Below are positions 3,450 through 16,534 of a stretch of DNA of 32,000 nucleotides, piece by piece (positions within the stretch are counted from its first letter, which is position 1; the number at the start of each line of letters is the position of its first letter). The stretch is from contig OY969425.1 of NCBI GenBank assembly GCA_963699255.1, positions 60,001-92,000 of the forward strand. The letters are read 5' to 3'. Both the position numbers and the translations under genes were made by a program. This DNA is from an uncultured bacterium (lineage in GTDB: Bacteria; Margulisbacteria; WOR-1; CAVSGV01). The notes under the pieces are model-generated. The model did not search any database and was not told the origin of the DNA. It was given only the letters and a program-made list of their open reading frames with translations.

Positions 3450-4631
3450 ATGAACTATCGCCGCGCGGTCGCCTATCTGGAGAGCTTTCAGAAAATGGGC
3501 ATAAGGCTTGGGCTTGAAAGGATCCGCACCCTGCTTTCGCATCTCGGAGCCCCCCAGGATGCTTACAAGATGATCCACATTGCCGGAACGAACGGAAAAG
3601 GTTCCATTGCCGCCATGCTTTCATCGATACTTAAACAGGCCGGATATAATGTAGGGCTTTACACTTCGCCGCATCTCGTCGATTACACCGAGAGGATAAG
3701 GATAAATGAGAAGGACGTCTCGAGGGAAAAATTCGCCGCGGCCGTTGAGGCGGTTAAAAAGGTCATCAACAAGCTGCCGGAGATGGACCTTACGGAATTC
3801 GAGGTCCTGACCGCCGCATCGTTCTTGTTGTTATCCCGTGAAAAAGTTGAGATAGTCATCGTTGAGACCGGGCTTGGCGGCAGTCTTGACGCGACGAACG
3901 TAATAACCCCCATATTATCGATCATCACTAATATCGATTATGACCACATGGATGTTCTGGGCGGCACTATAAGCAAGATAGCAAAGGAAAAGGGCGGGAT
4001 CATAAAGAACCATGTCCCGCTTGTCACCGGCGAAAAAAAAGTGTGGCGGATCCTGCATAGTATATGTAAGGAAAAGAGATGCAGGTTCATCAGGTCCGTC
4101 AGGGAAAAGGTTAAATATGTCCCGTTACTGGGGAGCCATCAGGCGGAGAACACGAAGGTTGTGCTTGCCAGCGTACGGGTTTTAAGGGGTTTGGGGCTCA
4201 ATATCAGCGATAAGCAGGTGGACAGAGGGCTTCGGCGCACTTTCTGGCCAGGAAGGCTTCAGGTCGTCTCAAAAAGTCCTCTGACTATCCTTGACGGGGC
4301 GCATAATCCCGCGGGAGCGAAAGCTCTGGTTGAATATCTGTCAGGATTGAAGAAGAAGTTCACTTTTGTTATCGGGATGCAGAGGAACAAGGATATTGAT
4401 AGTGTTATCAAAATATTGATGCCTGTCGCGGACAGGTTCATTGTTGTAAAGTCGAGCAATCCGAATGCCGTGTCGAAAGATGTCCTTGCGAAGAAGATAG
4501 AGAGGGCAGGGGGGCTGGCGGTGATCGCGAAGGATCTGAAGGGGGCACTTTCGATGGCGAAAAAGACAGGGAATCCCGTCTGTGTCGCCGGCTCGCTTTA
4601 TTTAATAGGAGATGCGTTAAAGAAGTTTTAA
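3450..4631 (+). CDS. folC: Bifunctional folylpolyglutamate synthase / dihydrofolate synthase
   Basis: The Mur-ligase ATP motif HIAGTNGKGS is present, along with YTSPHL, ETGLGG and DGAHNPAG. The length of 393 aa fits. Confidence 0.85.
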   Translation: MNYRRAVAYLESFQKMGIRLGLERIRTLLSHLGAPQDAYKMIHIAGTNGKGSIAAMLSSILKQAGYNVGLYTSPHLVDYTERIRINEKDVSREKFAAAVEAVKKVINKLPEMDLTEFEVLTAASFLLLSREKVEIVIVETGLGGSLDATNVITPILSIITNIDYDHMDVLGGTISKIAKEKGGIIKNHVPLVTGEKKVWRILHSICKEKRCRFIRSVREKVKYVPLLGSHQAENTKVVLASVRVLRGLGLNISDKQVDRGLRRTFWPGRLQVVSKSPLTILDGAHNPAGAKALVEYLSGLKKKFTFVIGMQRNKDIDSVIKILMPVADRFIVVKSSNPNAVSKDVLAKKIERAGGLAVIAKDLKGALSMAKKTGNPVCVAGSLYLIGDALKKF

Positions 4632-4673
4632 TTTGAGAAGGATTTAAAAGGTCCTTATTTAAGGAGTTGTCGG

Positions 4674-4793
4674 ATGATGCTCGTTGCAATGGCATTTACT
4701 CTAATTCATAGGCACAGTCTGGGTAAAGAGAGTTTGAGAAGGCGAAGGAATGGAATATTAGGATTCCGAACGAAAAAGAGTATAATGAGTTGA
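4674..4793 (+). CDS. Candidate small ORF of 39 aa with a hydrophobic N-terminus and basic tail
   Basis: AAGGAG lies 7 nt upstream of ATG 4674. The translation is MMLVAMAFTLIHRHSLGKESLRRRRNGILGFRTKKSIMS*. It was not in the ORF track because it is under 60 aa. No homology evidence is available. Confidence 0.25.
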   Translation: MMLVAMAFTLIHRHSLGKESLRRRRNGILGFRTKKSIMS

Positions 4794-4870
4794 AATATCT
4801 TATTTTGTTAGGTGTACTAATGTGATTAGCGGAAATGAATCAACTAAAAAACGACTATTGGAGGTAAATC

Positions 4871-6412
4871 ATGGATGTAACAGATGAAGTGTCTTTTTGG
4901 TCCAGATTAGGATTTAAGGCGAACCCTTTCCAATATACAAATGCTGACCAGGAAGATGAATTGCATAAATATTTTGTGCCGCCTCAATATTTTCCGTCTG
5001 TATGGGGTGACCCTCAAAAACCCCAGTCTTGTGTGGTGTTTGCACCACGTGGTGGAGGCAAATCTGCACAAAGAAGAATGATCGAAAATCAAAGTATTGG
5101 GAGTAAAGTCCTTGCACTTCAGTACACAAGGTTTGAATTTAGACCGGGTATGCGCATATCGGACATAGATATTGAATATCATCTCAAAAACATTATTCGA
5201 ATATGTTTAATCGGATTTCTTATGCAAACATATGAGAATAAAATTGGGCATATGGTTTTCAATGCAACTGAAAAGAGGCAAGTTAAGGATCTATGTAATT
5301 TTTATTTACATGATATGAATACTGAAGCGGTTTCCGCAGCTGTAAATGCGATAATGAGTCCAGCCGAAAAAGCAAAAAAATTGTTTTATGAGAACTCATG
5401 GGTTATCGGACCAATTATTCAGATTTTAGCAAAAACGTATATAGGGATAGACTTATTCCCTTTAACACTTCAAGCTGATGATACATCAATAAGAAATGTA
5501 TCAAAGACGCACTTAGAGAACATATTATTACTAATTAAAAAGCTTGGTTATGATTCAGTATATGTATTAATTGATAAAGTCGATGAAACAAGCTTAACAA
5601 GTAATAATGCACAAGCTTCCTTTGATTTGATTGCTCCAATGCTTAAGGATTTAGAATTACTACAAATGGGTAATATTGCCTTCAAATTCTTTTTGTGGGA
5701 TGAAATCACTCCTTCATTTATTAAATATGCACGGCCTGACAGAATTACGGCATTTAATATGACATGGTTAGAAGCAGACTTAAAAAATATGATGACTCGG
5801 AGGCTGTGTGCTTATAGCAATAATGGTAAGCGCAATTTCGGAAATCTATTTGATGCTAAGATAGCCCCCATAGATGTCCTTGAAGAATTGCTTTCTATTT
5901 TCTCCCAGAATTCCCCAAGAGATATGATTCGGATATGCAGGCAAATGGCTGCTGAACAATTAAAAATTAACCCATCAGATAGCCATATAGGCATGACTGC
6001 TGCTACTGAAGGGATAAACAGATTTTGTCTTGACCGCGCGCGCGAAGTTGTTTCCACGAAGATTCTTGAAGAGCTTCAGAAAACTCACCGATTAGATTTC
6101 ACTGTAAATTATGTTGCAAATGATATTTTTAAAATAGACCAAAATGCTGCAAGGGCAAAAATTACCTCAAGTTGGGTGGTAACTGGTATTATAAGGCGCA
6201 TTGATGATACCCATATTAAGGGAGTAAAAAAACCAGCGCATCATTTTGCGGTTATGGATTCTAGGATTGCCAGATCAATATTCCCTGAACTAAACTTTCT
6301 GGATTTCTTAGAGAATAAAGTTCGTGAATGTAAATGCGGGGAATTTGTTCTTAGAGATTGGGATATTTCAAGCAATCAGATATGTCAAAAGTGCAAAACG
6401 CAAATGAAATAA
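4871..6412 (+). CDS. Orphan P-loop NTPase (AAA+/STAND-like) with a C-terminal zinc ribbon
   Basis: GGAGG SD is present. Walker A is APRGGGKS at nt 5042-5065. A Walker-B-like VYVLIDKVDE lies at about nt 5558-5587. The N-terminal LGFKANPF..A..E lead-in is common in AAA_22/ExeA-like and ORC-like ATPases, and SPRDMIRICRQ looks like a sensor/lid motif. The C-terminus has CKC-x17-CQKC at nt 6329-6394. The gene is clearly more AT-rich than its neighbours. Confidence 0.7.
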   Translation: MDVTDEVSFWSRLGFKANPFQYTNADQEDELHKYFVPPQYFPSVWGDPQKPQSCVVFAPRGGGKSAQRRMIENQSIGSKVLALQYTRFEFRPGMRISDIDIEYHLKNIIRICLIGFLMQTYENKIGHMVFNATEKRQVKDLCNFYLHDMNTEAVSAAVNAIMSPAEKAKKLFYENSWVIGPIIQILAKTYIGIDLFPLTLQADDTSIRNVSKTHLENILLLIKKLGYDSVYVLIDKVDETSLTSNNAQASFDLIAPMLKDLELLQMGNIAFKFFLWDEITPSFIKYARPDRITAFNMTWLEADLKNMMTRRLCAYSNNGKRNFGNLFDAKIAPIDVLEELLSIFSQNSPRDMIRICRQMAAEQLKINPSDSHIGMTAATEGINRFCLDRAREVVSTKILEELQKTHRLDFTVNYVANDIFKIDQNAARAKITSSWVVTGIIRRIDDTHIKGVKKPAHHFAVMDSRIARSIFPELNFLDFLENKVRECKCGEFVLRDWDISSNQICQKCKTQMK

Positions 6413-6419
6413 TGGACAG

Positions 6420-6440
6420 GTGATTATCTATGCTAATCAC
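6420..6440 (+). terminator. Weak hairpin terminator candidate after the NTPase gene
   Basis: GTGATTA-tctatgc-TAATCAC is followed by TCTTCTTCTTC. The stem is AT-rich, so this is a weak call. Confidence 0.3.
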
Positions 6441-6502
6441 TCTTCTTCTTCAGGAGTGCTAGGGAGGCAGGCTAAGAATCCTTAAATATGCTCTCTAACT
6501 TG

Positions 6503-7063
6503 CTATTTCTTGATATTTATTGCCACTGACCGGCTGAACCAGATCTTAGGTTCTTCAAGAACATTAAACCCAAGGCTTTTTATCGTTTCTATCGACTTGC
6601 TAAAGTCTTTCTTTGAAACATGGAACTTCGGCTCAACTATTAGGACTTTCCCGTCCGGCTTCAATAACGTCTTTATTTCCTTCAACAACGCCAGCTGGTC
6701 GGGGATCTCGTGAAGGACATAAAATATCAAAATAAAGTCGAACTTTTCCGTTAAGCCTAACTTGTCCTTCGGGGTTATATATAGCTCTATGTTCTTAAGG
6801 CCCGAACGCTCGATCTTTTTCTTCAGTATCTCCAGCATCCCATCCTGCAGATCAGCCGCAACCACCTTGCCGGAAGCTCCCACCATCTTCGCCATATCCA
6901 TGGTGAAAAATCCCGGGCCGCAGCCAAGATCAAGCACCGTCATCCCTTCATTAATATATGGCTTTAATATCCGCTTCGGATCATGGGCCCGCCTGCGTAT
7001 CCCCATATCCAATATGCCCGAGAGTATTACCGGGCAGATTTTGTAGTTTATATCTAATTTCAT
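6503..7063 (-). CDS. Class I SAM-dependent methyltransferase
   Basis: SAM-binding motif I VLDLGCGPGFF is present, followed by VVAADL and the post-I/II pattern FDFILIFYVLHEI. Length is 186 aa with a TAG stop. Confidence 0.8.
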   Translation of the reverse strand: MKLDINYKICPVILSGILDMGIRRRAHDPKRILKPYINEGMTVLDLGCGPGFFTMDMAKMVGASGKVVAADLQDGMLEILKKKIERSGLKNIELYITPKDKLGLTEKFDFILIFYVLHEIPDQLALLKEIKTLLKPDGKVLIVEPKFHVSKKDFSKSIETIKSLGFNVLEEPKIWFSRSVAINIKK

Positions 7064-7083
7064 TTTTCCTTCCCGCTTTCTTT

Positions 7084-7112
7084 ATTATATTTATCGTTCA
7101 TCAGCTTGTCTA
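7084..7112 (-). promoter_or_regulatory. Sigma70-like promoter for the methyltransferase gene
   Basis: The minus strand reads TAGACA-N17-TATAAT. The -10 lies about 20 nt upstream of the GGAAGGA SD and ATG. Confidence 0.45.
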
Positions 7113-7254
7113 TATTTCATTTGTTGAACTATTTTTCAGGTGAGAGTTAACATGGTGGAAGCTAATTTGGGCTTATCGGCAAGATCAAAACGCGTTTCTG
7201 CGCTTTAGATATACTATGGCATAGTAATAAGCCAATCAGAAACGCTTGACCTTC

Positions 7255-7302
7255 TTTCTTTGTTACTTTCTTTGTGTCAAGACAAAGAAAGTAAGAAAGA
7301 AA
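7255..7302. repeat. Imperfect 21-bp AT-rich inverted repeat (TTTCTTTnTTACTTTCTTTGT / ACAAAGAAAGTAAGAAAGAAA)
   Basis: Hand pairing of 7255-7275 with 7282-7302 gives 13 bp, one mismatch, then 7 bp, with a 6-nt loop. The right arm is the start motif of the repeated element. Confidence 0.7.
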
Positions 7303-7565
7303 TGCCTTTGTGTTGTTTAGACAAAAAATGATCTTAAATGATCGAGACGAGGGGCTCTGCCCTTACGTAGAAAGTATAGTGGTTCCATTAAGATATCTCT
7401 CTCATCCCGCCCATTTTCTTTCTGCTCCTTCCTTGACTTGCCTACTCCCCCGACACAAGGTCGAGGTCGTACGGCTCAAACAGAAGGCCTAACAATGAAA
7501 CCCCCTCTGTATCTCCCCCTTACTAAGGGGGAGAAGTCTTGCGCGCAAGCGTGAGACAGAGGGGG
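7284..7565 (+). repeat. Repeated structured non-coding element, copy 1 (possible ncRNA or relic of a mobile cassette)
   Basis: 7346-7425 matches 9605-9684 at 77/80. 7431-7550 aligns to 9745-9864 without a net indel. It contains nested hairpins: P1 pairs 7501-7509 with 7557-7565, and an inner TCTCCCCCT-tacta-AGGGGGAGA sits at about 7513-7535. No convincing ORF is present. Confidence 0.75.
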
Positions 7566-7583
7566 TGCAGACTTATTAAGAGG

Positions 7584-7612
7584 TTGACAATGGGATTTTT
7601 GGCTATTAGTAT
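7584..7612 (+). promoter_or_regulatory. Sigma70-like promoter upstream of the DUF5678-like/retropepsin pair
   Basis: TTGACA (7584-7589), N17, TAGTAT (7607-7612). A perfect palindrome GGGTTAACCC at 7635-7644 lies between this promoter and the AGAGGAGA SD. Confidence 0.4.
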
Positions 7613-7723
7613 GACTGCATCGGTCTCGCAAGAGGGGTTAACCCGTTATTCTTTAAGCCATAAATACTGAAATTTATCGCGTAATTTAATGATATATATG
7701 ATGAGAAGAGGAGAATTGATCCG

Positions 7724-7912
7724 ATGGACAACACATTGGTAAAAGATGAAAAATACGGCGGCCGGTTCGTGGCTCTGAAGAGCTTTGACGACAAAACAAT
7801 ACTTGTTGACGGGAAAGATCCGAAAGAAACCCTTGAAAAAGCAGCTCAAAAAGGGTTTAAAAATCCTGTAATATTCTATGTGCCGATAAAAGATATGGTT
7901 CAGATCTACTGA
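7724..7912 (+). CDS. Small DUF5678-like protein (62 aa)
   Basis: EKYGGRFVALKSFDDKTILVDGKDPKETLEKAAQKGFKNPVIFYVP matches my recollection of the DUF5678 pattern (Y.GKWVA...G.VV..G....E..EKA...G..nP.i..VP). The SD is good. The next ATG is 3 nt after its stop. Confidence 0.6.
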   Translation: MDNTLVKDEKYGGRFVALKSFDDKTILVDGKDPKETLEKAAQKGFKNPVIFYVPIKDMVQIY

Positions 7913-7915
7913 CAG

Positions 7916-8320
7916 ATGGGACTTCAGAACAAACCTTTTATTCAGATCGGCTCGGGAAATACTCCAAAACCCTAGCTTCCTATCGTTATAATAAATCCTC
8001 ATACCAAGAAAAGCGTTTCCACTTATGGACTTGTTGACACGGGTGCGGATGAATGCGCCTTGCCCGCTAGTTTTGCCGAAATACTTGGCCATAACCTGCA
8101 ACAAGGAAGCCCCAAGGAAATATCCACGGGGAATGGCATTACGATCGCATATTCGCATACTGTTTCAATTGAAACGGATGGCTTTCATACGGAGGATGTG
8201 TTGATCGATTTTATGCCCAATTTAAGCATTCCATTGTTGGGCGTGAGAAGCTTTTTGAGTAAATTTATTCTAACGATTAACTATAAAGAGCGAACTTTTT
8301 CTCTGCAGCCAAACAACTGA
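7916..8320 (+). CDS. Retropepsin-like aspartic protease with its frame interrupted by an in-frame TAG at 7973-7975 (pseudogene or readthrough)
   Basis: Reading from ATG 7916 gives MGLQNKPFIQIGSGNTPKP*LPIVIINPHTKKSVSTYGLVDTGADECALPASFAEILGH... The catalytic D-T-G-A at 8036-8047 lies upstream of the ORF-track start at 8060. No ATG, GTG or TTG exists between the TAG and the DTG motif. Confidence 0.6.
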
Positions 8321-9398
8321 TAAACTCCGCTTTCAGCCGGGTTTCGGCCCATTCGCCCTCCGCAGTGGAATCCCAGATTATCCCGCCGCCTATTCCCATC
8401 TCGCAACTTTTACCTCGTACAAGTATAGTCCTGATGGGAACATTGAAATACATCCCGCCATCGGGAGATATGTACCCGATCGCCCCCGTGTAAACATTCC
8501 TTTCTTCCTTTTCGATCTCCCTGATGATCTCCATCGCGCGTATCTTCGGCGCGCCGGTGACCGACCCGGAAGGGAAAAGCGCGGACATCAGTCTTGAGAG
8601 CTTGATATCAGGCGGGACTTTAGCGGTGACCGTGGATGTCATCTGGAACAGAGTTTTATATGCCGTTACCTTGAACAGGTCCCGCCACGCGATATTTCTG
8701 CCTATCCTTCCCAGGTCATTCCGCAAAAGATCCGCTATCATTATGTTCTCAGCCCTGTTCTTTCCATCATGGAAGAACCTGCGCTTCTCGATAACATCGG
8801 ATATCGCATTTTTCCCCCTGCGCCACGTGCCTTTCATCGGCTCAGTTAGAATATGCCCGCAGTTTTTCTTTATAAAACGCTCCGGGGAAAGCGACAGGAC
8901 CTGGAATCCTCCCGCGTCGATGTAAGCGGGATAGGGGACAGGCTGGCGGCGTAAAAGCTCTTTGTACAGCGCGTACGGGTCGCCCTGAAGATCGAATTTA
9001 TATTTTACGCAGTATGTTATCTGATAAACATCGCCGTTCGATATGTGCCGGCGGATGAGTCCGATATTGCGGGAGTAATCTTCAAATGAAATATCCGGCC
9101 TTAGATCTTTGATGCCGAAGGTCCCGGGTTTCCTCGATGTTGACTCCTGGCCACAAGCATTTTTATAAACGCCGAAAATAAGAAGTGGGAGATCAGAAGG
9201 GATCGCTGTGTATAATTTTTCTTCAAGGCAATAGCCGGCTTCGTATGAAATGTATCCCGCCAGCCAGTATCCGGCGGCGGAAAGATCCTCCAGCTCCTTC
9301 AGCGCGGAATGAAAATGCTGCGGATCATAACAGGCCACGATCTTTTCCGGATCGCGGAAAAAAAGCGGTTTGTTCTCAAAACTGGCCTGGACTTCCAT
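8277..9398 (-). CDS. pabB: Aminodeoxychorismate synthase component I / chorismate-binding enzyme (PabB-like, short form)
   Basis: Chorismate-binding motifs PSGSVTGAPK and GAIGY are present, along with GIGGGI near the C-terminus. An AAGGAG SD is present. Length is 373 aa. An anthranilate synthase TrpE-type assignment cannot be excluded by eye. Confidence 0.75.
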   Translation of the reverse strand: MEVQASFENKPLFFRDPEKIVACYDPQHFHSALKELEDLSAAGYWLAGYISYEAGYCLEEKLYTAIPSDLPLLIFGVYKNACGQESTSRKPGTFGIKDLRPDISFEDYSRNIGLIRRHISNGDVYQITYCVKYKFDLQGDPYALYKELLRRQPVPYPAYIDAGGFQVLSLSPERFIKKNCGHILTEPMKGTWRRGKNAISDVIEKRRFFHDGKNRAENIMIADLLRNDLGRIGRNIAWRDLFKVTAYKTLFQMTSTVTAKVPPDIKLSRLMSALFPSGSVTGAPKIRAMEIIREIEKEERNVYTGAIGYISPDGGMYFNVPIRTILVRGKSCEMGIGGGIIWDSTAEGEWAETRLKAEFISCLAAEKKFALYS

Positions 9399-9404
9399 GG
9401 ACTT

Positions 9405-9441
9405 ACTCCTTTAAGCCTGGGTGTCCCGGTTAAAGAGGAGT
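9405..9441 (-). promoter_or_regulatory. SD-sequestering hairpin in the pabB leader
   Basis: The minus strand reads ACTCCT-ct-TTAA-ccgggacacccaggc-TTAA-AGGAGT, then aagtcc, then ATG. The 3' arm is the SD of pabB. Confidence 0.4.
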
Positions 9442-9462
9442 GAAGTTCATGGCCCGGACATG

Positions 9463-9471
9463 ATTATATCA
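9463..9471 (-). promoter_or_regulatory. Extended -10 (TGATATAAT) promoter element for pabB
   Basis: The minus strand reads GTGATATAATCATG about 60 nt upstream of the pabB ATG. The -35 is weak. Confidence 0.35.
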
Positions 9472-9540
9472 CTTATAATTCCGGATGTAATTTCTTACCT
9501 TGTGAGCAACTGCTCGAAGCCGCGAGCCTGAAGGAATGTA

Positions 9541-9864
9541 AAAGAAAGTGGAAAGGAAATACCTTTTATGTAAAACAATGCAAAATGAAAACTAAAGTTA
9601 TCGTGACGATGGGCTCTGCCCTTGCGTGGAAAGTATAGTGGTTCCATTAAGATATCTCTCTCATCCCGCCCATTTTCTTTCTGCAGCGAAAGAAAATGGG
9701 GGAAAAGAACGCCGACAGGGGACAAGCCCCCTGTACCCCCACGGCCTTGACTCGCCTTCTCGTCCTCACCAAGCTCGGCCTCGTACGGCTCAGACAGAAG
9801 GCCTAATAATGAAACCCCCTCTGTATCTCCCCCTTACAAAGGGGGAGAAGTTTCGAACGCAAGC
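9541..9864 (+). repeat. Repeated structured non-coding element, copy 2
   Basis: It is homologous to 7284-7550. It carries an extra 60 nt (9685-9744) that completes a perfect 13-bp hairpin at 9669-9700 and adds a 7-bp hairpin at 9715-9734. It lacks the 3' strand of P1 that copy 1 has. Confidence 0.75.
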
Positions 9865-9865
9865 A

Positions 9866-9944
9866 AAAGAAAGTAAGAAGGAAAGGTATTATGTTTTTTT
9901 GAGTTAGAAACATGGAGCGAACTTTTTCTCTACAGCCAAGCAAC
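9866..9944 (+). repeat. Third partial start motif of the element, plus a 30-nt relic of the retropepsin 3' end
   Basis: 9866-9900 (AAAGAAAGTAAGAAGGAAAGG...) resembles 7284-7320. 9915-9944 matches 8288-8317 at 28/30. Confidence 0.7.
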
Positions 9945-9988
9945 ACTAGCCCAATTCTAAGATTATGAAGGCTAGGTGGCCATGATGA

Positions 9989-10837
9989 TTACGAGCATAT
10001 ATAATTAATGATATGCTCCTCTAGGGTCCTTCCGATTTGATATGCGTCATTTCTTTCGATCACTTTTTTCAGAGCTTTTTCATCAAGGCATATTTCATCC
10101 ACGGCTTCAGACGCTGCCATAGCATCATTTTCCACAAGATATTTATAGAAGCTGAACGCCTTTTCAACGCCCAGTGACCGCACTACGGACCTGACGACCG
10201 CCTCGTCATCCTCCGGCAATTTGATCTGAAAAAGGTAGGGCTTGATGAAGAAGCCGGAAAGATCTTCAAGCCCCAGCTCTTTTACCGCTTTCATGATCAC
10301 AAGGTCTCCAAGCTTTACAAGCGATGCCGGGAGCGATGAGCCATATTTCCTGCTGTAATCCAATATGTTCGAGATCATCGGCGCGTCTTCTTTTATAAGC
10401 CATTCCATCCCTGTAAGCGCGTGCCTGAACGTTCTTCTGTCCGTGCCGGCCAGTGTGCCCAGGAAATCGATCGCTCCATCACTGTTATATCTGTAATAGG
10501 CGTGCCACATGCTCTTTGCGCGGTCCGCGCCGAACTCTTCAAATAAAGCGGCCGCTTTCTCCCTGTCCATGGAATGCAACAGCCGGCATTCTCTCGTGTC
10601 AAATGTATATCCTATCGTCAATTTGGGAAGCGTTTCGTTCAAGAATTTCTTTGCCTTATAATATCCGCGCGTTTCCAGGTCGCTTACGATAAAACTTTCT
10701 GTGCCGCAAAAAGGGAGCGACCTTTTTAATCCCCAGAACACCTTATCCGCTTTTCGCGCCCGCATCTTCACGAACCTGCGGACCCCCGCGGCTTTAAGAT
10801 TTGCCTTTATAATGGCGTTAAAAGATAACTCACTCAT
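9989..10837 (-). CDS. Hypothetical protein (282 aa)
   Basis: The ORF is long with an AAGGGGA SD. I recognise no motif. Confidence 0.6.
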   Translation of the reverse strand: MSELSFNAIIKANLKAAGVRRFVKMRARKADKVFWGLKRSLPFCGTESFIVSDLETRGYYKAKKFLNETLPKLTIGYTFDTRECRLLHSMDREKAAALFEEFGADRAKSMWHAYYRYNSDGAIDFLGTLAGTDRRTFRHALTGMEWLIKEDAPMISNILDYSRKYGSSLPASLVKLGDLVIMKAVKELGLEDLSGFFIKPYLFQIKLPEDDEAVVRSVVRSLGVEKAFSFYKYLVENDAMAASEAVDEICLDEKALKKVIERNDAYQIGRTLEEHIINYICS

Positions 10838-10970
10838 CGTTTTTCCCCTTATTCAATGCTTGATCGAGCCGTATATATCTCGTTAAATTCCCCGAAAAAT
10901 CCCAGTATTTTTATAAAATTCTCATGACCCGGAGGCTGGCGGCAGTGGATAAGGGAGCAGGCAAAAGCGG

Positions 10971-11627
10971 TCAGTTCTGCAGGACTATCGCGGATCCGTC
11001 ATGATCGCCGGTGGTCAGCGTTTCGCTTGTGATCATATTGTCCAGAAAGACCTTGCGGGTCATCTTGAGCTCCGTTTTGCTTGTTATCCGGGCGGCGAAT
11101 TCTTCGCGGGCCTTCACGAACGACACATAATCATGCCCGCGCCGGTCCAGCTTCTCCCTGCTGAATGCGCCGGTAAAATAGAACTTCCCTTCGCTCTTAT
11201 ACGGCCCGAAGATCCTCCCGTGGTCGTTCTTGAATTCGGGAGGCCTGTCGGAGAAAGCATAGCGGTTTTTCCTCGGGATCTGCGGGTACAGCGATGTCCC
11301 GATGTATCCCGAATAACCCGATGAATGCCCCCTTCGGGGCTTGAAACCGGCTTCCGCGCAGTACTTGGATATCCTGCCTATGGCTTCTTCAGAGGTCTTT
11401 GACCTGCTGTCTATGATCACCACGTTTATCGGCTCCTTTATTTCTTTTCCATGGAATTTCAGCCCCAGCCAGTTCGCGGGCTTGTTAGAAGGCGTTATCA
11501 TCCATTTGCCGATGACCGGAAGCCCTTTGGGATGCGCCAGGTCGGAAGATGCGGGCTGGTACGCTGCGCCTGCAGCGTAAAAAGCCAGCGCGGCCAGGAA
11601 AATGATCACGATCGATCTCTTTCGCAT
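10971..11627 (-). CDS. Secreted hypothetical protein, possibly an LssY C-terminal-like domain
   Basis: The N-terminal signal peptide is MRKRSIVIIFLAALAFYAAGA. The pattern PINVVIID...AEAGFKP...YAFSDRP...NDHGRIFGP resembles my recollection of LssY_C proteins. Confidence 0.55.
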   Translation of the reverse strand: MRKRSIVIIFLAALAFYAAGAAYQPASSDLAHPKGLPVIGKWMITPSNKPANWLGLKFHGKEIKEPINVVIIDSRSKTSEEAIGRISKYCAEAGFKPRRGHSSGYSGYIGTSLYPQIPRKNRYAFSDRPPEFKNDHGRIFGPYKSEGKFYFTGAFSREKLDRRGHDYVSFVKAREEFAARITSKTELKMTRKVFLDNMITSETLTTGDHDGSAIVLQN

Positions 11628-11780
11628 CTTAACCTCTGCCCTCCGATCCTTCCTGATACATCCCCATCAACACGAGGCACGACCAAATTTATTATAACAC
11701 TTTTTGGCCATGTGAACAGTTCACGGCCCAAGTTATCCGTACACAGAGTGAAATTTCCATGAAGATATGACGACAAATAT

Positions 11781-12290
11781 ATGAGCGAGGAGCTGATTAA
11801 TATGGGGATACCTATAACATATATAAGAATAAGGACCGGGACAGGCGAGATCGTAGGGGGGACCAAGAGGAACGTTATTGACAGGCATGCCTTTAGCGCC
11901 CTGACCCCGGATATTTTGCGAAACATTAAATGTCTCCCGGGTAATATTCAGGATAAGCTGAAAATAATAAATCCGCTGGTCCGGATGCCGAAAGCGCCGT
12001 TACAATTCGCGTTACGGAAGATCGATCTTGATACACCGGTGACCTGCAGCGATTTTACGAAAAAATATGCTCCTAAACGTTTTGAGGAAGCGATAGCTTT
12101 TTTTAAAGAGTGTCTAAAGACATCGGACGCAAAGATAGGAGCAGCTTTGGGTGTTGAGGCGGATCCTTACGGGAGGACATGGCCGGGAGCCCATCTACAG
12201 CTGAACTTTCACACGTGGATCAAAGGGTCAATGGACCTGTCTAAAGATGTGATACACATCGATCTGTACAATATGTATTCACTGGCGTGA
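11781..12290 (+). CDS. Hypothetical protein (169 aa)
   Basis: The ORF is divergent from the 10971-11627 gene. The SD is weak and no motif is recognised. Confidence 0.45.
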   Translation: MSEELINMGIPITYIRIRTGTGEIVGGTKRNVIDRHAFSALTPDILRNIKCLPGNIQDKLKIINPLVRMPKAPLQFALRKIDLDTPVTCSDFTKKYAPKRFEEAIAFFKECLKTSDAKIGAALGVEADPYGRTWPGAHLQLNFHTWIKGSMDLSKDVIHIDLYNMYSLA

Positions 12291-12395
12291 TAGATAACTT
12301 GACCCGCCCCCGCGACCCTAGCCACTATTGATTTCTTTTCTTCGGGATAGGTGTATAATAAAATACAGCGATCAGGGATCCGGAGGAGGATAATC

Positions 12396-13511
12396 ATGAA
12401 TAAGCATCTGTTGGCTGTTTCCGTCACTCTATTGTGCCTCGCGTCTCTCGCCTTAACATTTACTATTTCCGGCTGCGGTTCCAACGCCACGGGAGGCGGC
12501 GGCAGCGGCGGAGGAGCCAGTGTCACAGCTACAGGAGAGGTATATATCACCGATTTTTTGAATAAAAGGGTTCTTGTCCTCTTGTCCAGCGGCGAGTCAT
12601 TCATTCAAGTGGCCACAATAGAACTGACCGGCGCATCAACTCCAAAATGGATGGCCATGAACCCGAGCGGCACAAAGCTGTATGTCGCGGATGAAGGAGC
12701 CAATAAAGTATTTGTGATAAATACAATAGGGAATACTGTTGAAGCTTCAGTTCCTGTATGTAGCACACCGAGAGGCATGGCTTTTAATGCTGACGCGAGC
12801 AAGCTCTTTGTCGCAACACCCGGCGATTGGGATATAGACATCATAGATACATCAAATAATACAAAAAGTGGTCCTATTTCGGTTGGCTCTATCTTCTCAT
12901 CAGATTTTTCCGATATAGCTTATGGCGGCGGTTATGATCAACTCTACGTTGCGGAAACAGGCCTGAATTCTGTTGAAGTTGTGGATACCCCCGGAGGTGC
13001 CGCCGTGATAGCCGGCTATATTCCCGTTCCTGCGCCGTATGAGATAATTAGTCACGATACCAGTACAGTCTACGGGATTGCGTATACGACATCACATGAT
13101 TCGGCCGCTCCATATCTAAGCGAAGTATATACGACCACTAAAAAGATCGTGCACACATGGGAATCTTCGGCGTCCTCAGCAACCCCCACTGCTTATCACG
13201 GGTTCCGCAGCCTGGTCTTTTCACCGGATAACAAGAAACTCTACGCGGCTGACCATGATTTCAGCTATATTGACAGTATGGGTATAACAACTTTCGAAAC
13301 TATGAAACCGATAAATTATATTTCCGGAGCGGCTGGTTCGGTCCCAGCTCCCGAACAGATCGCCGTATATCCGGACGGGAAGTACCTGGCAGTATTGAAC
13401 AGTTACGACACGAAAGAAGTCGTTTTACTGGATACCGTCCATAAAAAGAGGGTTGGGTCTTATGCGCTTCCATATACCGCTTCTTATTTCGGGATAGTGT
13501 ATAAGCCATAA
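12396..13511 (+). CDS. YVTN-type beta-propeller repeat lipoprotein
   Basis: I prefer ATG 12396 because GGAGGAGGA lies 6 nt upstream. The lipobox LTFTISGC is followed by a G/S linker. Repeated motifs such as P..MA.NP.G.KLYVA......V.VI are present. Confidence 0.7.
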   Translation: MNKHLLAVSVTLLCLASLALTFTISGCGSNATGGGGSGGGASVTATGEVYITDFLNKRVLVLLSSGESFIQVATIELTGASTPKWMAMNPSGTKLYVADEGANKVFVINTIGNTVEASVPVCSTPRGMAFNADASKLFVATPGDWDIDIIDTSNNTKSGPISVGSIFSSDFSDIAYGGGYDQLYVAETGLNSVEVVDTPGGAAVIAGYIPVPAPYEIISHDTSTVYGIAYTTSHDSAAPYLSEVYTTTKKIVHTWESSASSATPTAYHGFRSLVFSPDNKKLYAADHDFSYIDSMGITTFETMKPINYISGAAGSVPAPEQIAVYPDGKYLAVLNSYDTKEVVLLDTVHKKRVGSYALPYTASYFGIVYKP

Positions 13512-13525
13512 CAGAACGGGATAAG

Positions 13526-14254
13526 ATGGTTGATGTCTCCGTAGTTATACCTGTCCGCAATGAAGCGGGGACACTGAATGGCCTTCACTCCAGACTCAAA
13601 AAAGAGCTGGAAGCCCTCCGGAAAACATACGAGATCATCTATGTGAATGATTGCTCCGCTGACGATTCTGCGAATATACTCCATGCCATTCAGATGAAAA
13701 ACGAACATGTGAAGGTTGTCAATTTCGACAGGCATTACGGTCAGGCAAATGCCCTGCAGGCGGGATTCGATATCGCGCAGGGAAATATCATAGTTACTCT
13801 TGATGCTGATATGGAGAACGACCCCCTCGACATCGAACAGCTCGTCAACAGATTGAACGACGGCTATGACGCGGTGTGCGGAAGGCGCGTCGGGCGGCCC
13901 GTAAATTTAAAACTTCTTCTTTCCTGCTTGGGCAACTTTGTGTTCCGGCTCTTCTTTAGGACGCCCGTAAGCGACCTGGCATGCACCTTAAGGGCATACA
14001 AAAAGGAAGCAATAAAAGGCCTTGTCATAACCGGGACCCTCCACAGATATCTGCCCGCGCTTCTTTATATGAGAGGAGCGAAAGTGGCCCAGATAGAAGT
14101 GAGATACAAGATGAGAAGATACGGGAAAACAAAGTATAATGATTTTTCAAGGGCTATAAGCACCCTGAAAGACCTTTTTTGGATGATATTCGACCGGAAC
14201 AGGATATTGAACAATAAGATAAGAGGATATAAGATCCGGGAAATATGGCAGTGA
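13526..14254 (+). CDS. Family 2 glycosyltransferase (polyprenol-phosphate sugar transferase-like)
   Basis: VSVVIPVRNE...IIYVNDCSAD and the TLDADMEND (DxD) motifs are present, with a C-terminal amphipathic or TM region. Confidence 0.8.
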   Translation: MVDVSVVIPVRNEAGTLNGLHSRLKKELEALRKTYEIIYVNDCSADDSANILHAIQMKNEHVKVVNFDRHYGQANALQAGFDIAQGNIIVTLDADMENDPLDIEQLVNRLNDGYDAVCGRRVGRPVNLKLLLSCLGNFVFRLFFRTPVSDLACTLRAYKKEAIKGLVITGTLHRYLPALLYMRGAKVAQIEVRYKMRRYGKTKYNDFSRAISTLKDLFWMIFDRNRILNNKIRGYKIREIWQ

Positions 14255-15696
14255 ATTTCTTAAAACGGTTAAAACAAAACAAAGAGCTCCAGATGATCCT
14301 CTCGATCATATTTGTCGGCGCTTTATTGAGGCTGCTGTCGCTTACTCGCGAAGGCCTATGGTACGACGAAGCGCTTACCGCCCTTTCCATGAAAATGCCG
14401 TTCGCCGAGATGCTGAAGGACAGGTTCGCGGCCGGCCATTCGCCCCTTTATTTCACGGGCCTGTATGTATGGAGCCGGTTCTTCGGCGCAAGCGAATTTT
14501 CCCTGCGATTCCCCTCGGCTGCCGCCTCGATAGTTTCGATATATTACTTCTGGCTGCTCGCAAGGAAGCTGTTCACCAATTACAAGGCCGCGGTATTGAG
14601 TACGGTTTTCTTCACTCTCAGCGCGCTGAACATATATTTCGCGCAGGAAGCGCGCATGTACAGCATGTCCGTGCTTTTCACCATAATGTCTTTCTATTAT
14701 TTCCTGGAGGCCCGGGACGGTCCGGGGATAAAGGGCTGGATCTATTATATCGCGTCCACCGCCGTTCTTTTGTATCTCAGCGCGTCCAATATCCTTATCA
14801 TCTTCGCGCAGATAGCTTATGTCCTGATAAAGAGGAAAAAAACCGCGGAATATTTCCTGTCGCTTGCCGTGACATGCGCCGCGTACCTGCCGATGGCGTT
14901 CTTTTATTTCAGCATGAAGAAGCTGGGTTTCATAGAATGGATCCCGCCTGTAACGATCAACACATTCCTCGAGTTGTTCTACGGATGGGGGTTCAAGCCT
15001 GTTCCGGTCGCGGGAGCCGGGGGATTATACCTGGCTTACCTTTATTTTGCGGAGCTTTTGAGCGTGTTCATGGTCGGGCCGATCATCGTTTTTGGCGCCG
15101 CGGTGTCGGCGTATGTGTCGTTCAGGAAGAAAAGGCTCGAGAGAGACGCTGACACGGCGATATTCCTTATTTTATGGCTTGTTCTCCCGATCCTTCTCGC
15201 GCTCCTTTATTCATGGCTGAAGCAGCCCGTCTTCGGTCCGAAGAGGTACCTGATAATGCTCTCGCCCGCGTATTACCTGCTTATCGCGCTCGGGCTTTCC
15301 AGGATAACATGGCGCAGGCTCAAGTACGGCCTGGCTTATCTTATTATCGCCATGTTCATTTTCACTCTCGGGATATTCTATGTCACGCCTACAAGGGAAG
15401 ACTGGAGAGGGGCGGTTTCTTCCATTGACCGCGAATTCACGCGGGGAGAGATCATATTCGGCGACCTCGCGACGGGCGTCATGTATCAGTATTACGGCAG
15501 GCATGCGGACGCCATCATCTGCGATGTCAGGTATATCAATGCGGGAATAGCGGGCAGAGGCTGGCTGCTCATGAGGACGAGGGATTTCGGGGCGATATTC
15601 GGCAGCGGCGATCTCATAACGCGGCATTTCAAAAATAAGGCATATCCGGGACATTTTGGCCTTGAACTGTACCACATAACCGGGAAGGCGCGCTAA
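14245..15696 (+). CDS. GT39/ArnT-like (PMT_2) membrane glycosyltransferase
   Basis: The 483-aa polytopic protein has the N-terminal loop motif GLWYDEALTA, typical of the GT-C/ArnT-like family. It overlaps the GT2 gene by 10 nt. Confidence 0.7.
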   Translation: MAVNFLKRLKQNKELQMILSIIFVGALLRLLSLTREGLWYDEALTALSMKMPFAEMLKDRFAAGHSPLYFTGLYVWSRFFGASEFSLRFPSAAASIVSIYYFWLLARKLFTNYKAAVLSTVFFTLSALNIYFAQEARMYSMSVLFTIMSFYYFLEARDGPGIKGWIYYIASTAVLLYLSASNILIIFAQIAYVLIKRKKTAEYFLSLAVTCAAYLPMAFFYFSMKKLGFIEWIPPVTINTFLELFYGWGFKPVPVAGAGGLYLAYLYFAELLSVFMVGPIIVFGAAVSAYVSFRKKRLERDADTAIFLILWLVLPILLALLYSWLKQPVFGPKRYLIMLSPAYYLLIALGLSRITWRRLKYGLAYLIIAMFIFTLGIFYVTPTREDWRGAVSSIDREFTRGEIIFGDLATGVMYQYYGRHADAIICDVRYINAGIAGRGWLLMRTRDFGAIFGSGDLITRHFKNKAYPGHFGLELYHITGKAR

Positions 15697-15817
15697 AGAG
15701 CGATCTGCCTTATTGACGGGGATTCCTTTGTCCTGCTTTTCCGCCTTAGGCGTATATGCCTCACTCCCAAAAACTGTTTGACTTACGACCTGTTTTTTTG
15801 ATACACTTACTGAATAA

Positions 15818-16534
15818 ATGGGCGAAAGAAGAGATCTAAGGGATTTACTTAAAGACGCGGACTTCACGCAAAAACGGATAATTGACGATCTTGCGAGTTC
15901 CGATGCCGAATCCGATTCTCCGAGGCGGGGAGTGGCGAGGGACATCAGAAAATCCGAAGGGGGAGATTTTATAAAGAACGTTTTTATAGGCCTTCTCCTT
16001 GTGGGCATAGTCGTGGGAAGCTTCTGGGTCTCCTTCCTTATAGGCAAAAAAGTCCTCGTCCCGCCGGTCAAAAATCTCCAGCCATTTGAGATGCCGGCCC
16101 CAAAGGCCATTTCCATGTCGGACATAGAGAAAGCCACTCCTGTTCAGGGTGAACCTGCCATTCAGGAAAAAGAGGTCAAGGAAGTCGAGGTCAAAGCAAC
16201 ACTGCCCAAGCCGGTCGCGGCCAAAAAAGTCACGGCCGCAAAAAAGATCGGAGCCGCGGTCAAGTCCTCGAAAGTTAAGTCTGCCATAAAGACGCCGGTC
16301 GCAAAAACAAAGGGCGCTAAACATTGCAAGGTCATAGTCGGGACATATAAAACGCCGGCTGAAGCGAACGTCCTGGTGGCGGCGTTAAAACAAAAAGGTT
16401 TTCAGTCCTATGTGAAAGCGCTGTCGGGCCTTTACAGGGTCCAGTCCGGGGCATTTGACAGCAAGGCAAAAGCAGGTCCGCTGGTGGTTAAATTAAAGAA
16501 TAAGGGATTCACCCCCACGGTAATTGTTGAATGA
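15818..16534 (+). CDS. SPOR domain-containing protein (single TM, Lys/Ala-rich linker)
   Basis: The C-terminal segment CKVIVGTYKTPAEANVLVAALKQKGFQSYVKALSGLYRVQSGAFDSKAKAGPLVVKLKNKGF matches the SPOR fold pattern. The TM segment is FIGLLLVGIVVGSFWVSFLI. Confidence 0.7.
   Translation: MGERRDLRDLLKDADFTQKRIIDDLASSDAESDSPRRGVARDIRKSEGGDFIKNVFIGLLLVGIVVGSFWVSFLIGKKVLVPPVKNLQPFEMPAPKAISMSDIEKATPVQGEPAIQEKEVKEVEVKATLPKPVAAKKVTAAKKIGAAVKSSKVKSAIKTPVAKTKGAKHCKVIVGTYKTPAEANVLVAALKQKGFQSYVKALSGLYRVQSGAFDSKAKAGPLVVKLKNKGFTPTVIVE

Follow-up and report, generated by a model that had tools for sequence, protein, structure and literature searches.

DS-41 (working name AAA2) is a single gene from an Escherichia coli ECOR strain, encoding the protein WP_033812887.1 of 502 amino acids (aa), and owes its name to the DefensePredictor study of DeWeirdt, Mahoney and Laub (Science 2026, PMC13092281). 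In that study the protein was annotated as an AAA+ ATPase with an HHpred match to 2QBY_A (Cdc6/Orc1) over residues 8-488, and in strain MG1655 it lowered plating by 5.3 logs for T4, 5.0 for Bas1, 4.7 for Candy and 3.6 for Bas63 (PMC13092281), with weaker reductions of 2.7 for Bas3, 2.5 for Bas69, 2.3 for Bas19 and 1.4 for Bas25 (PMC13092281, Table S7). Homologues reach as far as the Halobacteria (PMC13092281), and DS-41 is listed as a remote homologue of Avs1B over 52% of its length. Here we analysed a relative of this gene in an uncultured bacterium of the Margulisbacteria (WOR-1, CAVSGV01; assembly GCA_963699255.1). The window, meaning the whole stretch of DNA that was analysed, comprises 32,000 nucleotides of contig OY969425.1 (positions 60,001 to 92,000, forward strand), and all coordinates below refer to it. 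The gene in question (P0001) lies at 4871-6412 on the + strand and encodes a protein of 513 aa. We propose, with a probability of about 70%, that it is a horizontally acquired, stand-alone anti-phage ATPase of the DS-41 family and hence belongs to a family that already has a name, so that it is no orphan.

Assignment to this family, and within it to a clade whose proteins end in a zinc ribbon, is based on an NCBIfam match, a profile-profile alignment and an AlphaFold2 model. The NCBIfam equivalog model NF053860.1 'DS41_1_antiphage', which does not extend to the ribbon region, matched the window protein over positions 1-447 of 448 with 394.3 bits (E = 7.7e-118), the curated cut-off being 370 bits, and NF047389 'P-loop ATPase, Sll1717 family' scored 134 bits. 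With NF053860.1 the representative of the E. coli prototype cluster reached 414 bits and ribbon-clade proteins 365-474 bits, so that the curated family already spans both groups. BLASTP against the 399 published residues of DS-41 gave 26% identity over 371 aa (E = 8e-37). Homologues were gathered separately for the window protein and for the prototype, and hhalign joined the profiles of the two sets over 459 columns, from window residues 7-474 to prototype residues 1-489 (probability 100%, E = 1.8e-63). In addition, 2qby_A is the top structural relative of both proteins, by Foldseek for the window protein and by HHpred for DS-41. PADLOC v2 (2023) returned no significant match (best PDC-M28C, E = 0.005), the DS-41 family being newer than that library, and a search of PHROGs gave no meaningful match. 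A literature search returned no mechanistic follow-up on DS-41 and nothing on 'Sll1717' beyond the DefensePredictor paper.

Both proteins are the products of single accessory genes, have a length of ~500 aa, pass NF053860.1 and have 2QBY_A as their best structural relative. They also share the order of their elements, namely lead-in, Walker A, helical insert, hhhhDKxDE, RxDR, SPRE/D lid and winged helix. They differ in that they are only ~25% identical and lie on opposite sides of the deepest split of the family tree, and in that the prototype ends in an acidic, cysteine-free tail whereas the window protein carries a four-cysteine ribbon with an RDW motif. An earlier note, made from the sequence alone, had taken the gene for an orphan and for a candidate single-gene anti-phage factor, in which an AAA+/ORC-Cdc6-like NTPase acts on its own and carries a zinc ribbon. 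The latter proposal is supported by the NF053860.1 match, the hhalign alignment, the resemblance to 2qby_A and the accessory status of the gene. The suggestion that the protein was uncharacterised and belonged to no named system has been overtaken, the family having been named and validated in 2025/2026 (PMC13092281). Protection against phage by the window protein is predicted from its family, the demonstration having been made for the E. coli prototype alone.

The 513-aa open reading frame (ORF), the Walker A and Walker-B-like motifs, the lead-in and the SPRDMIRICRQ sequence, all described before, are present, and the AlphaFold2 model (112 sequences; mean predicted local distance difference test (pLDDT) 94.5, predicted template-modelling score 0.92) shows how they are arranged along the + strand. 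A conserved lead-in (aa 13-50, 4907-5020; LGF..NPF..TNAD.E..L..YFVPPPYF, with LGFKANPF as residues 13-20 of the window protein) precedes strand 1 and is where the Pfam scan placed its only match, to PF24389 (ORC-CDC6-like), which covers aa 18-75. Strand 1 and the P-loop (54-65) include the Walker A motif APRGGGKS (aa 58-65, 5042-5065), where R60, G61, G63 and K64 do not vary in either clade. Strand 2 (80-85) is followed by a helical insert of ~125 aa that contains six helices according to DSSP (aa 100-225, 5168-5545), and strand 3 leads into the Walker B motif VYVLIDKVDE (strand and motif 229-239; motif aa 230-239, 5558-5587), whose D235, D238 and E239 are the same throughout both clades and the 112 homologues. 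Strand 4 lies at 269-276, and just before strand 5 (293-296) the stretch R288-P-D290-R291 (5732-5743) is, judging by its position, a candidate arginine finger, with R288 invariant in both clades and D290 and R291 in the ribbon clade. The C-terminal part consists of a helical lid bearing the sensor-2-like SPRDMIRICRQ (aa 348-358, 5912-5944; S348, P349 and R350 invariant), linker helices, a winged helix (aa 407-470, 6089-6280), a short helix and the ribbon. The region of about 150 aa that had seemed unassignable thus resolves into the end of the AAA+ lid, the helical linker and the winged helix. The last of these is supported by the secondary structure of the model, by alignment with the prototype clade, by conservation (F410, T411, F420, R428, W435, D463 and R465) and by the Foldseek alignment to Orc1/Cdc6, which takes in the winged helix of the latter.

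Among structures in the PDB, the top Foldseek match is Sulfolobus solfataricus Orc1/Cdc6 on origin DNA (2qby_A, E = 1.5e-5), followed in order by 2qby_B, yeast Cdc6, Aeropyrum pernix ORC2, MalT, BrxC and TnsC; searching the PDB with a sequence profile gave no match (best E = 0.12), and Foldseek against viral structures returned nothing informative. With the archaeal Orc1/Cdc6 proteins (2qby_A/B of S. solfataricus; 1w5s/1w5t, ORC2 of A. pernix) the window protein shares the AAA+ core, the lid, the C-terminal winged helix, an insert after strand 2 and an arginine before strand 5. Identity is only ~10%, however, the insert of ~125 aa contrasts with their short helix-extension-helix, the window protein adds the conserved N-terminal lead-in and the zinc ribbon, and its gene is not conserved in the lineage (0 of 40 relatives). 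The order of strands and helices together with the invariant K64, D235/D238/E239, R288 and R350, whose roles are assigned by position, agrees with the hallmarks of the ORC/Cdc6 clade (PMC12839542), among them an insert after strand 2 (PMC12839542), with the caveat that the insert here is far larger than usual. It sits where ORC/Cdc6 proteins have their initiator-specific insert and, in the ribbon clade, is the most variable region of all (mean column entropy 2.35 bits), the most conserved being the lead-in and the nucleotide-binding motifs. We regard it as a candidate recognition surface.

The earlier placement as a STAND/AAA+ type stands in its AAA+ half, within the ORC/Cdc6 clade, and falls in its classical STAND half, which would call for repeats or an effector. 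Neither the model nor Pfam showed a repeat sensor or an N-terminal effector in the window protein, and with regard to the features of Avs/NLR-type STAND proteins we found no C-terminal repeats, no effector and no match to an Avs or NLR model. The label of an AAA+ protein of the ORC/Cdc6 clade suits the window protein better than that of a classical STAND NTPase. With sensors such as Avs and bNACHT it shares the logic of a nucleotide-driven, oligomerising switch within one polypeptide, and TIR, EAD1 and kinase modules like theirs occur in its relatives, but it lacks their TPR, LRR or WD40 sensor and their N-terminal effector, and no PADLOC model for Avs or NLR proteins matches it. A second comparison within phage defence is offered by BrxC/PglY and BrxD of BREX (PMC12839542; 9zll, 9zdx), both among the Foldseek matches of the window protein, which likewise combine an AAA+ module of the ORC/Cdc6 clade with a following winged helix-turn-helix. 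BrxC, however, has 1200-1300 aa and forms part of a multi-gene methylation system, whereas the window protein has 513 aa and stands alone, with no BREX genes near it and no match to a PADLOC BREX model.

The zinc ribbon (aa 484-513, 6320-6409) reads C487-K-C489-x15-C505-Q-K-C508, with R495-D496-W497 between the knuckles, so that the four-cysteine ribbon of the earlier note is confirmed and its spacer of 17 residues is corrected to CxC-x15-CxxC. Across the 112 homologues of the window clade the four cysteines and the R-D-W motif are invariant or nearly so, and the ribbon is modelled with a pLDDT of ~95. The motif occurs in 111 of 112 full-length proteins of the window clade versus 0 of 111 of the prototype clade; the prototype itself ends in a short acidic tail without cysteines, which the window protein lacks, its ribbon following after residue 474. 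Ribbon-type motifs were present in 48 of the 78 full-length representatives of 50%-identity clusters (~60%), so that having a ribbon is more common than lacking one in the diversity sampled. When 91 proteins were placed in a maximum-likelihood tree, two major clades separated, each with a support of 98 in the Shimodaira-Hasegawa-like approximate likelihood ratio test, and the window protein fell into a subclade (support 100) of the clade opposite the E. coli prototype.

The genomic setting marks the gene as accessory in this genome. A homologue search of 41 genomes (this one and 40 relatives) found it in this genome alone. It is the first gene of an 11.2-kb segment (4632-15817), delimited by synteny with five relatives, between folC (3450-4631) and a SPOR-domain gene (15818-16534) that is followed by mreB. 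In all five relatives (three of the same family, two of the same class) folC is directly followed by the SPOR-domain gene and mreB and the segment is missing at this junction; the genes that lead up to it (M20 peptidase, NUDIX, XerC/D-type recombinase and M50-like peptidase) are, like folC itself, syntenic. The gene has a G+C content (GC) of 36.1% and 29.8% at third codon positions (GC3), as against genome-wide ORF means of 47.9% and 55.9%, ranking 35th lowest in GC (z = -2.7) and 11th lowest in GC3 (z = -3.1) among 1273 ORFs; it is the most AT-rich gene of the window, as had been noted before, and the sole strongly AT-rich one of the segment. No mobility gene (transposase, integrase or replication gene) adjoins it, and target-site duplications or terminal repeats around it amounted to 10-15-nt AT-rich matches consistent with chance. 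From the synteny break, the presence in one genome of 41, the atypical composition and the lack of adjoining mobility genes or repeats, we conclude that the gene is a lone foreign acquisition at a synteny break. Scans for tRNAs and Rfam families found no match in the whole window, hence no tRNA integration site.

Several candidates suggested by this setting were rejected. An integrase-family gene at 1771-2631 encodes a recombinase of the XerC/D type, keeps its syntenic position in each of the five relatives examined and was rejected as a mobility gene. The methyltransferase at 6503-7063 (-), which the earlier note had considered relevant context, matches UbiE/MenG/ArsM-type small-molecule enzymes dependent on S-adenosylmethionine and no DNA methylase family, and was discarded as a restriction-modification partner. 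A role of the gene product as the replication initiator of the cell is ruled out by its occurrence in 1 of 41 genomes and its foreign base composition. Beyond the gene itself and this methyltransferase, the segment encodes a 170-aa ORF without a family match, pabB, ORFs of 282, 218 and 169 aa without a family match, a beta-propeller protein and GT2 and PMT_2 glycosyltransferases. Regulation of such metabolic neighbours, for example the methyltransferase or pabB, by an ATP-dependent transcription regulator of the MalT type (AAA+/STAND plus winged helix) would be in line with the winged helix of the model, with the presence of MalT (8bob_C) among the Foldseek matches and with some Joint Genome Institute records that call homologues 'predicted transcriptional regulator'. 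We consider this extremely unlikely, as neighbours differ between homologues, no homologue was found in the 40 relatives whereas folC and the genes upstream of it are conserved in those examined, the base composition is that of a foreign gene, and the protein fits the anti-phage family model far better than it resembles any regulator.

For the gene itself, a strong Shine-Dalgarno sequence, GGAGG, was confirmed at 4860-4864 (+), 6 nt 5' of the ATG at 4871, and no promoter-like site was found upstream. Downstream, an AT-rich hairpin with an 8-bp stem (6419-6441, +), followed by CTTCTTCTTC, had been read as a weak terminator; it folds no better than shuffled sequence (z = -0.14), was not reported by a terminator scan and is not a canonical intrinsic terminator. 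The first knuckle of the ribbon is CxC instead of CxxC, a form found in just 3 of 111 homologues. This deviation and the lack of a promoter-like site might be taken as signs that the gene is decaying or inactive and now serves no function in its host genome, which seems very improbable given an intact, full-length reading frame that retains every residue invariant across the 112 homologues, the strong Shine-Dalgarno sequence and a score above the equivalog cut-off.

Two side observations concern the surrounding DNA. Two diverged non-coding copies of ~280-300 nt (82-88% identity; 7278-7559 and 9581-9884) flank the 170-aa ORF and pabB, and 30 nt from the 3' end of the pabB ORF (-) recur with 93% identity (8288-8317 and 9915-9944). 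In one relative (G001, locus L014, 7842-8881) mreB gave two overlapping matches, to query residues 1-67 and 57-347, which suggests a frameshift or an assembly error.

The family as a whole is widespread. When 1.84 billion cluster representatives were searched with a profile, 2604 clusters reached E <= 1e-3 and 704 reached E <= 1e-30, and a scan of species-representative genomes found 148 relatives, in Acidobacteriota, Chloroflexota, Zixibacteria, Bacteroidota, Actinomycetota, Bacillota, Cyanobacteria and several proteobacterial classes as well as in Methanococcoides and another archaeon. As sampled, the prototype clade consists largely of named Proteobacteria and the ribbon clade of many phyla including archaea. 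A tblastn search of 50,697 phage records found no family member. In all six long contigs the homologue stands alone, mostly amid housekeeping genes, and no conserved partner gene emerged from these contigs or from 146 neighbours at 37 loci (two genes on each side). No neighbour family was seen more than three times among the 146, the most frequent being DNA methylases (three N6/N4, two C5), CfrBI-type restriction enzymes (two) and integrases (two). These counts, for which there is no matched control, suggest some association of the family with restriction-modification genes and mobile DNA. Genes of the prototype clade are also found on five conjugative E. coli IncF plasmids, and on the one plasmid inspected (CP058102.1; L106, 80198-90645) the gene belongs to an accessory region with toxin-antitoxin modules, its neighbours being CcdAB, a RelE/ParE-CopG pair and an NAD+ phosphorylase of the RES family. 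The DS-41 gene on that plasmid is still labelled 'hypothetical protein'.

One homologue, P0042, adjoins genes for a PolB-like protein of 1002 aa, a Cas1 of 517 aa and an N6/N4 DNA methylase in a casposon-like arrangement (L017, 11557-17340; Candidatus Acidiferrales metagenome-assembled genome GCA_054639595.1), and the same arrangement recurs in L018. P0042 may be cargo of such an element; no terminal inverted repeats were found around its PolB and Cas1 genes within the 16.5 kb searched (L017, 5000-21542). This neighbourhood, the Orc1/Cdc6 initiators and TnsC among the structural matches and the low GC of an inserted gene could all be accommodated if the window protein were a replication initiator or target selector of a mobile element (Orc1/Cdc6-type or TnsC/TniB-like), a remnant or a component of an integrated element, and not an immune protein. 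Such a role is nevertheless very unlikely, since no transposase, integrase or replication gene adjoins the gene, the XerC/D-type gene belongs to conserved synteny, flanking repeats were not found, homologues occur singly and in settings unrelated to one another, the phage records contain no member of the family and one of its members is experimentally protective (PMC13092281).

Fusions in relatives of the window protein are informative about how the core might work. P0298 carries a C-terminal TIR domain and no ribbon; in P0302 the ribbon is followed by EAD1 ('Effector-associated domain 1') and in P0292 by DUF952; in P0321, P0324 and P0335 the complete core and ribbon are preceded by a Ser/Thr protein kinase at the N-terminus; and P0308, P0342 and P0351 end in a helical tail of ~100 aa after the ribbon without a Pfam match. 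Aravind and colleagues reportedly characterised EAD domains as adaptors of NTP-dependent conflict systems. Such fusions are as expected if the DS-41 core is an oligomerising sensor and switch that can drive different outputs.

Here we tentatively propose a mechanism for the window protein, modelled on its fold and held at somewhat less than an even chance, in which an infection cue is sensed, ATP drives the assembly of an oligomer and the DNA-bound oligomer blocks phage replication. The variable insert, the winged helix and the ribbon would recognise the cue, for which phage DNA or a replication intermediate is the likeliest candidate, and binding of ATP would then promote oligomerisation through the arginine finger in a manner similar to Orc1/Cdc6, TnsC and BrxC. 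In members without an effector, the nucleic-acid-bound oligomer might itself interfere with phage replication, and in the fused relatives oligomerisation would activate the TIR, EAD1, DUF952 or Ser/Thr-kinase domains. A stricter version, in which proteins of the ribbon clade act as effector-less 'anti-initiators' of Orc1/Cdc6 descent that load on phage DNA or replication intermediates as an ATP-dependent oligomer, by means of winged helix, ribbon and hypervariable insert, and halt replication directly and without death of the cell, appears doubtful to us; if true, it would represent a mode of immunity distinct from nuclease-based, NADase-based and abortive systems.

The same family and the same defensive role are also compatible with a protein that is a sensor and switch only and, instead of a direct block on phage DNA, causes death or arrest of the cell (abortive infection) through a host factor, a drain on ATP or the coating of host DNA, with the zinc ribbon serving as a protein-protein adaptor. 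We regard this as unlikely, though as a serious contender: relatives fuse the core to suicide or signalling effectors and adaptors (TIR, EAD1, Ser/Thr kinase), the broad phage range of DS-41, including T4 with its modified DNA, argues against simple recognition of a DNA sequence, and the ribbon with its pLDDT of ~95 would fit a defined packing or docking role. Then again, neither the window protein nor the prototype has an effector domain, no partner gene is conserved, and the prototype functions when transferred alone to E. coli K-12.

Several points weigh against our interpretation of the gene as an anti-phage ATPase. The sole tested DS-41 protein belongs to the other major clade, is 26% identical to the window protein and has no ribbon. 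The paper that describes it contains no mutants and no mechanism (PMC13092281), so that DNA binding, oligomerisation and trigger are all inferred from resemblance of fold, and the Foldseek scores behind that resemblance are modest (template-modelling scores of 0.42 when normalised to the length of the query and of 0.56 when normalised to that of the target; E = 1.5e-5). Around the homologues a few restriction-modification and integrase neighbours do occur, counted without a formal enrichment control, but most homologues examined sit amid housekeeping genes and not in recognisable defence islands. Finally, the host is an uncultured bacterium with a small genome, in which expression and activity of the gene are predicted only.

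Taken on these terms, an apparent orphan becomes a member of a named and validated defence family, and for this genome the finding comes down to a single defence gene that was gained by horizontal transfer and lies in a variable segment. The family in turn gains structure, with two deep clades, of which the ribbon-less one is represented by the tested protein, and with effector and kinase fusions among the relatives. DS-41 is broad in range yet has no recognisable effector. We see the interest of this analysis in the mechanism of an effector-less, broad-range Orc1/Cdc6-like protein and in the ribbon clade, more than in this particular gene. Spread across bacterial phyla and archaea, the ribbon clade offers a set of natural variants for probing the role of the C-terminus.

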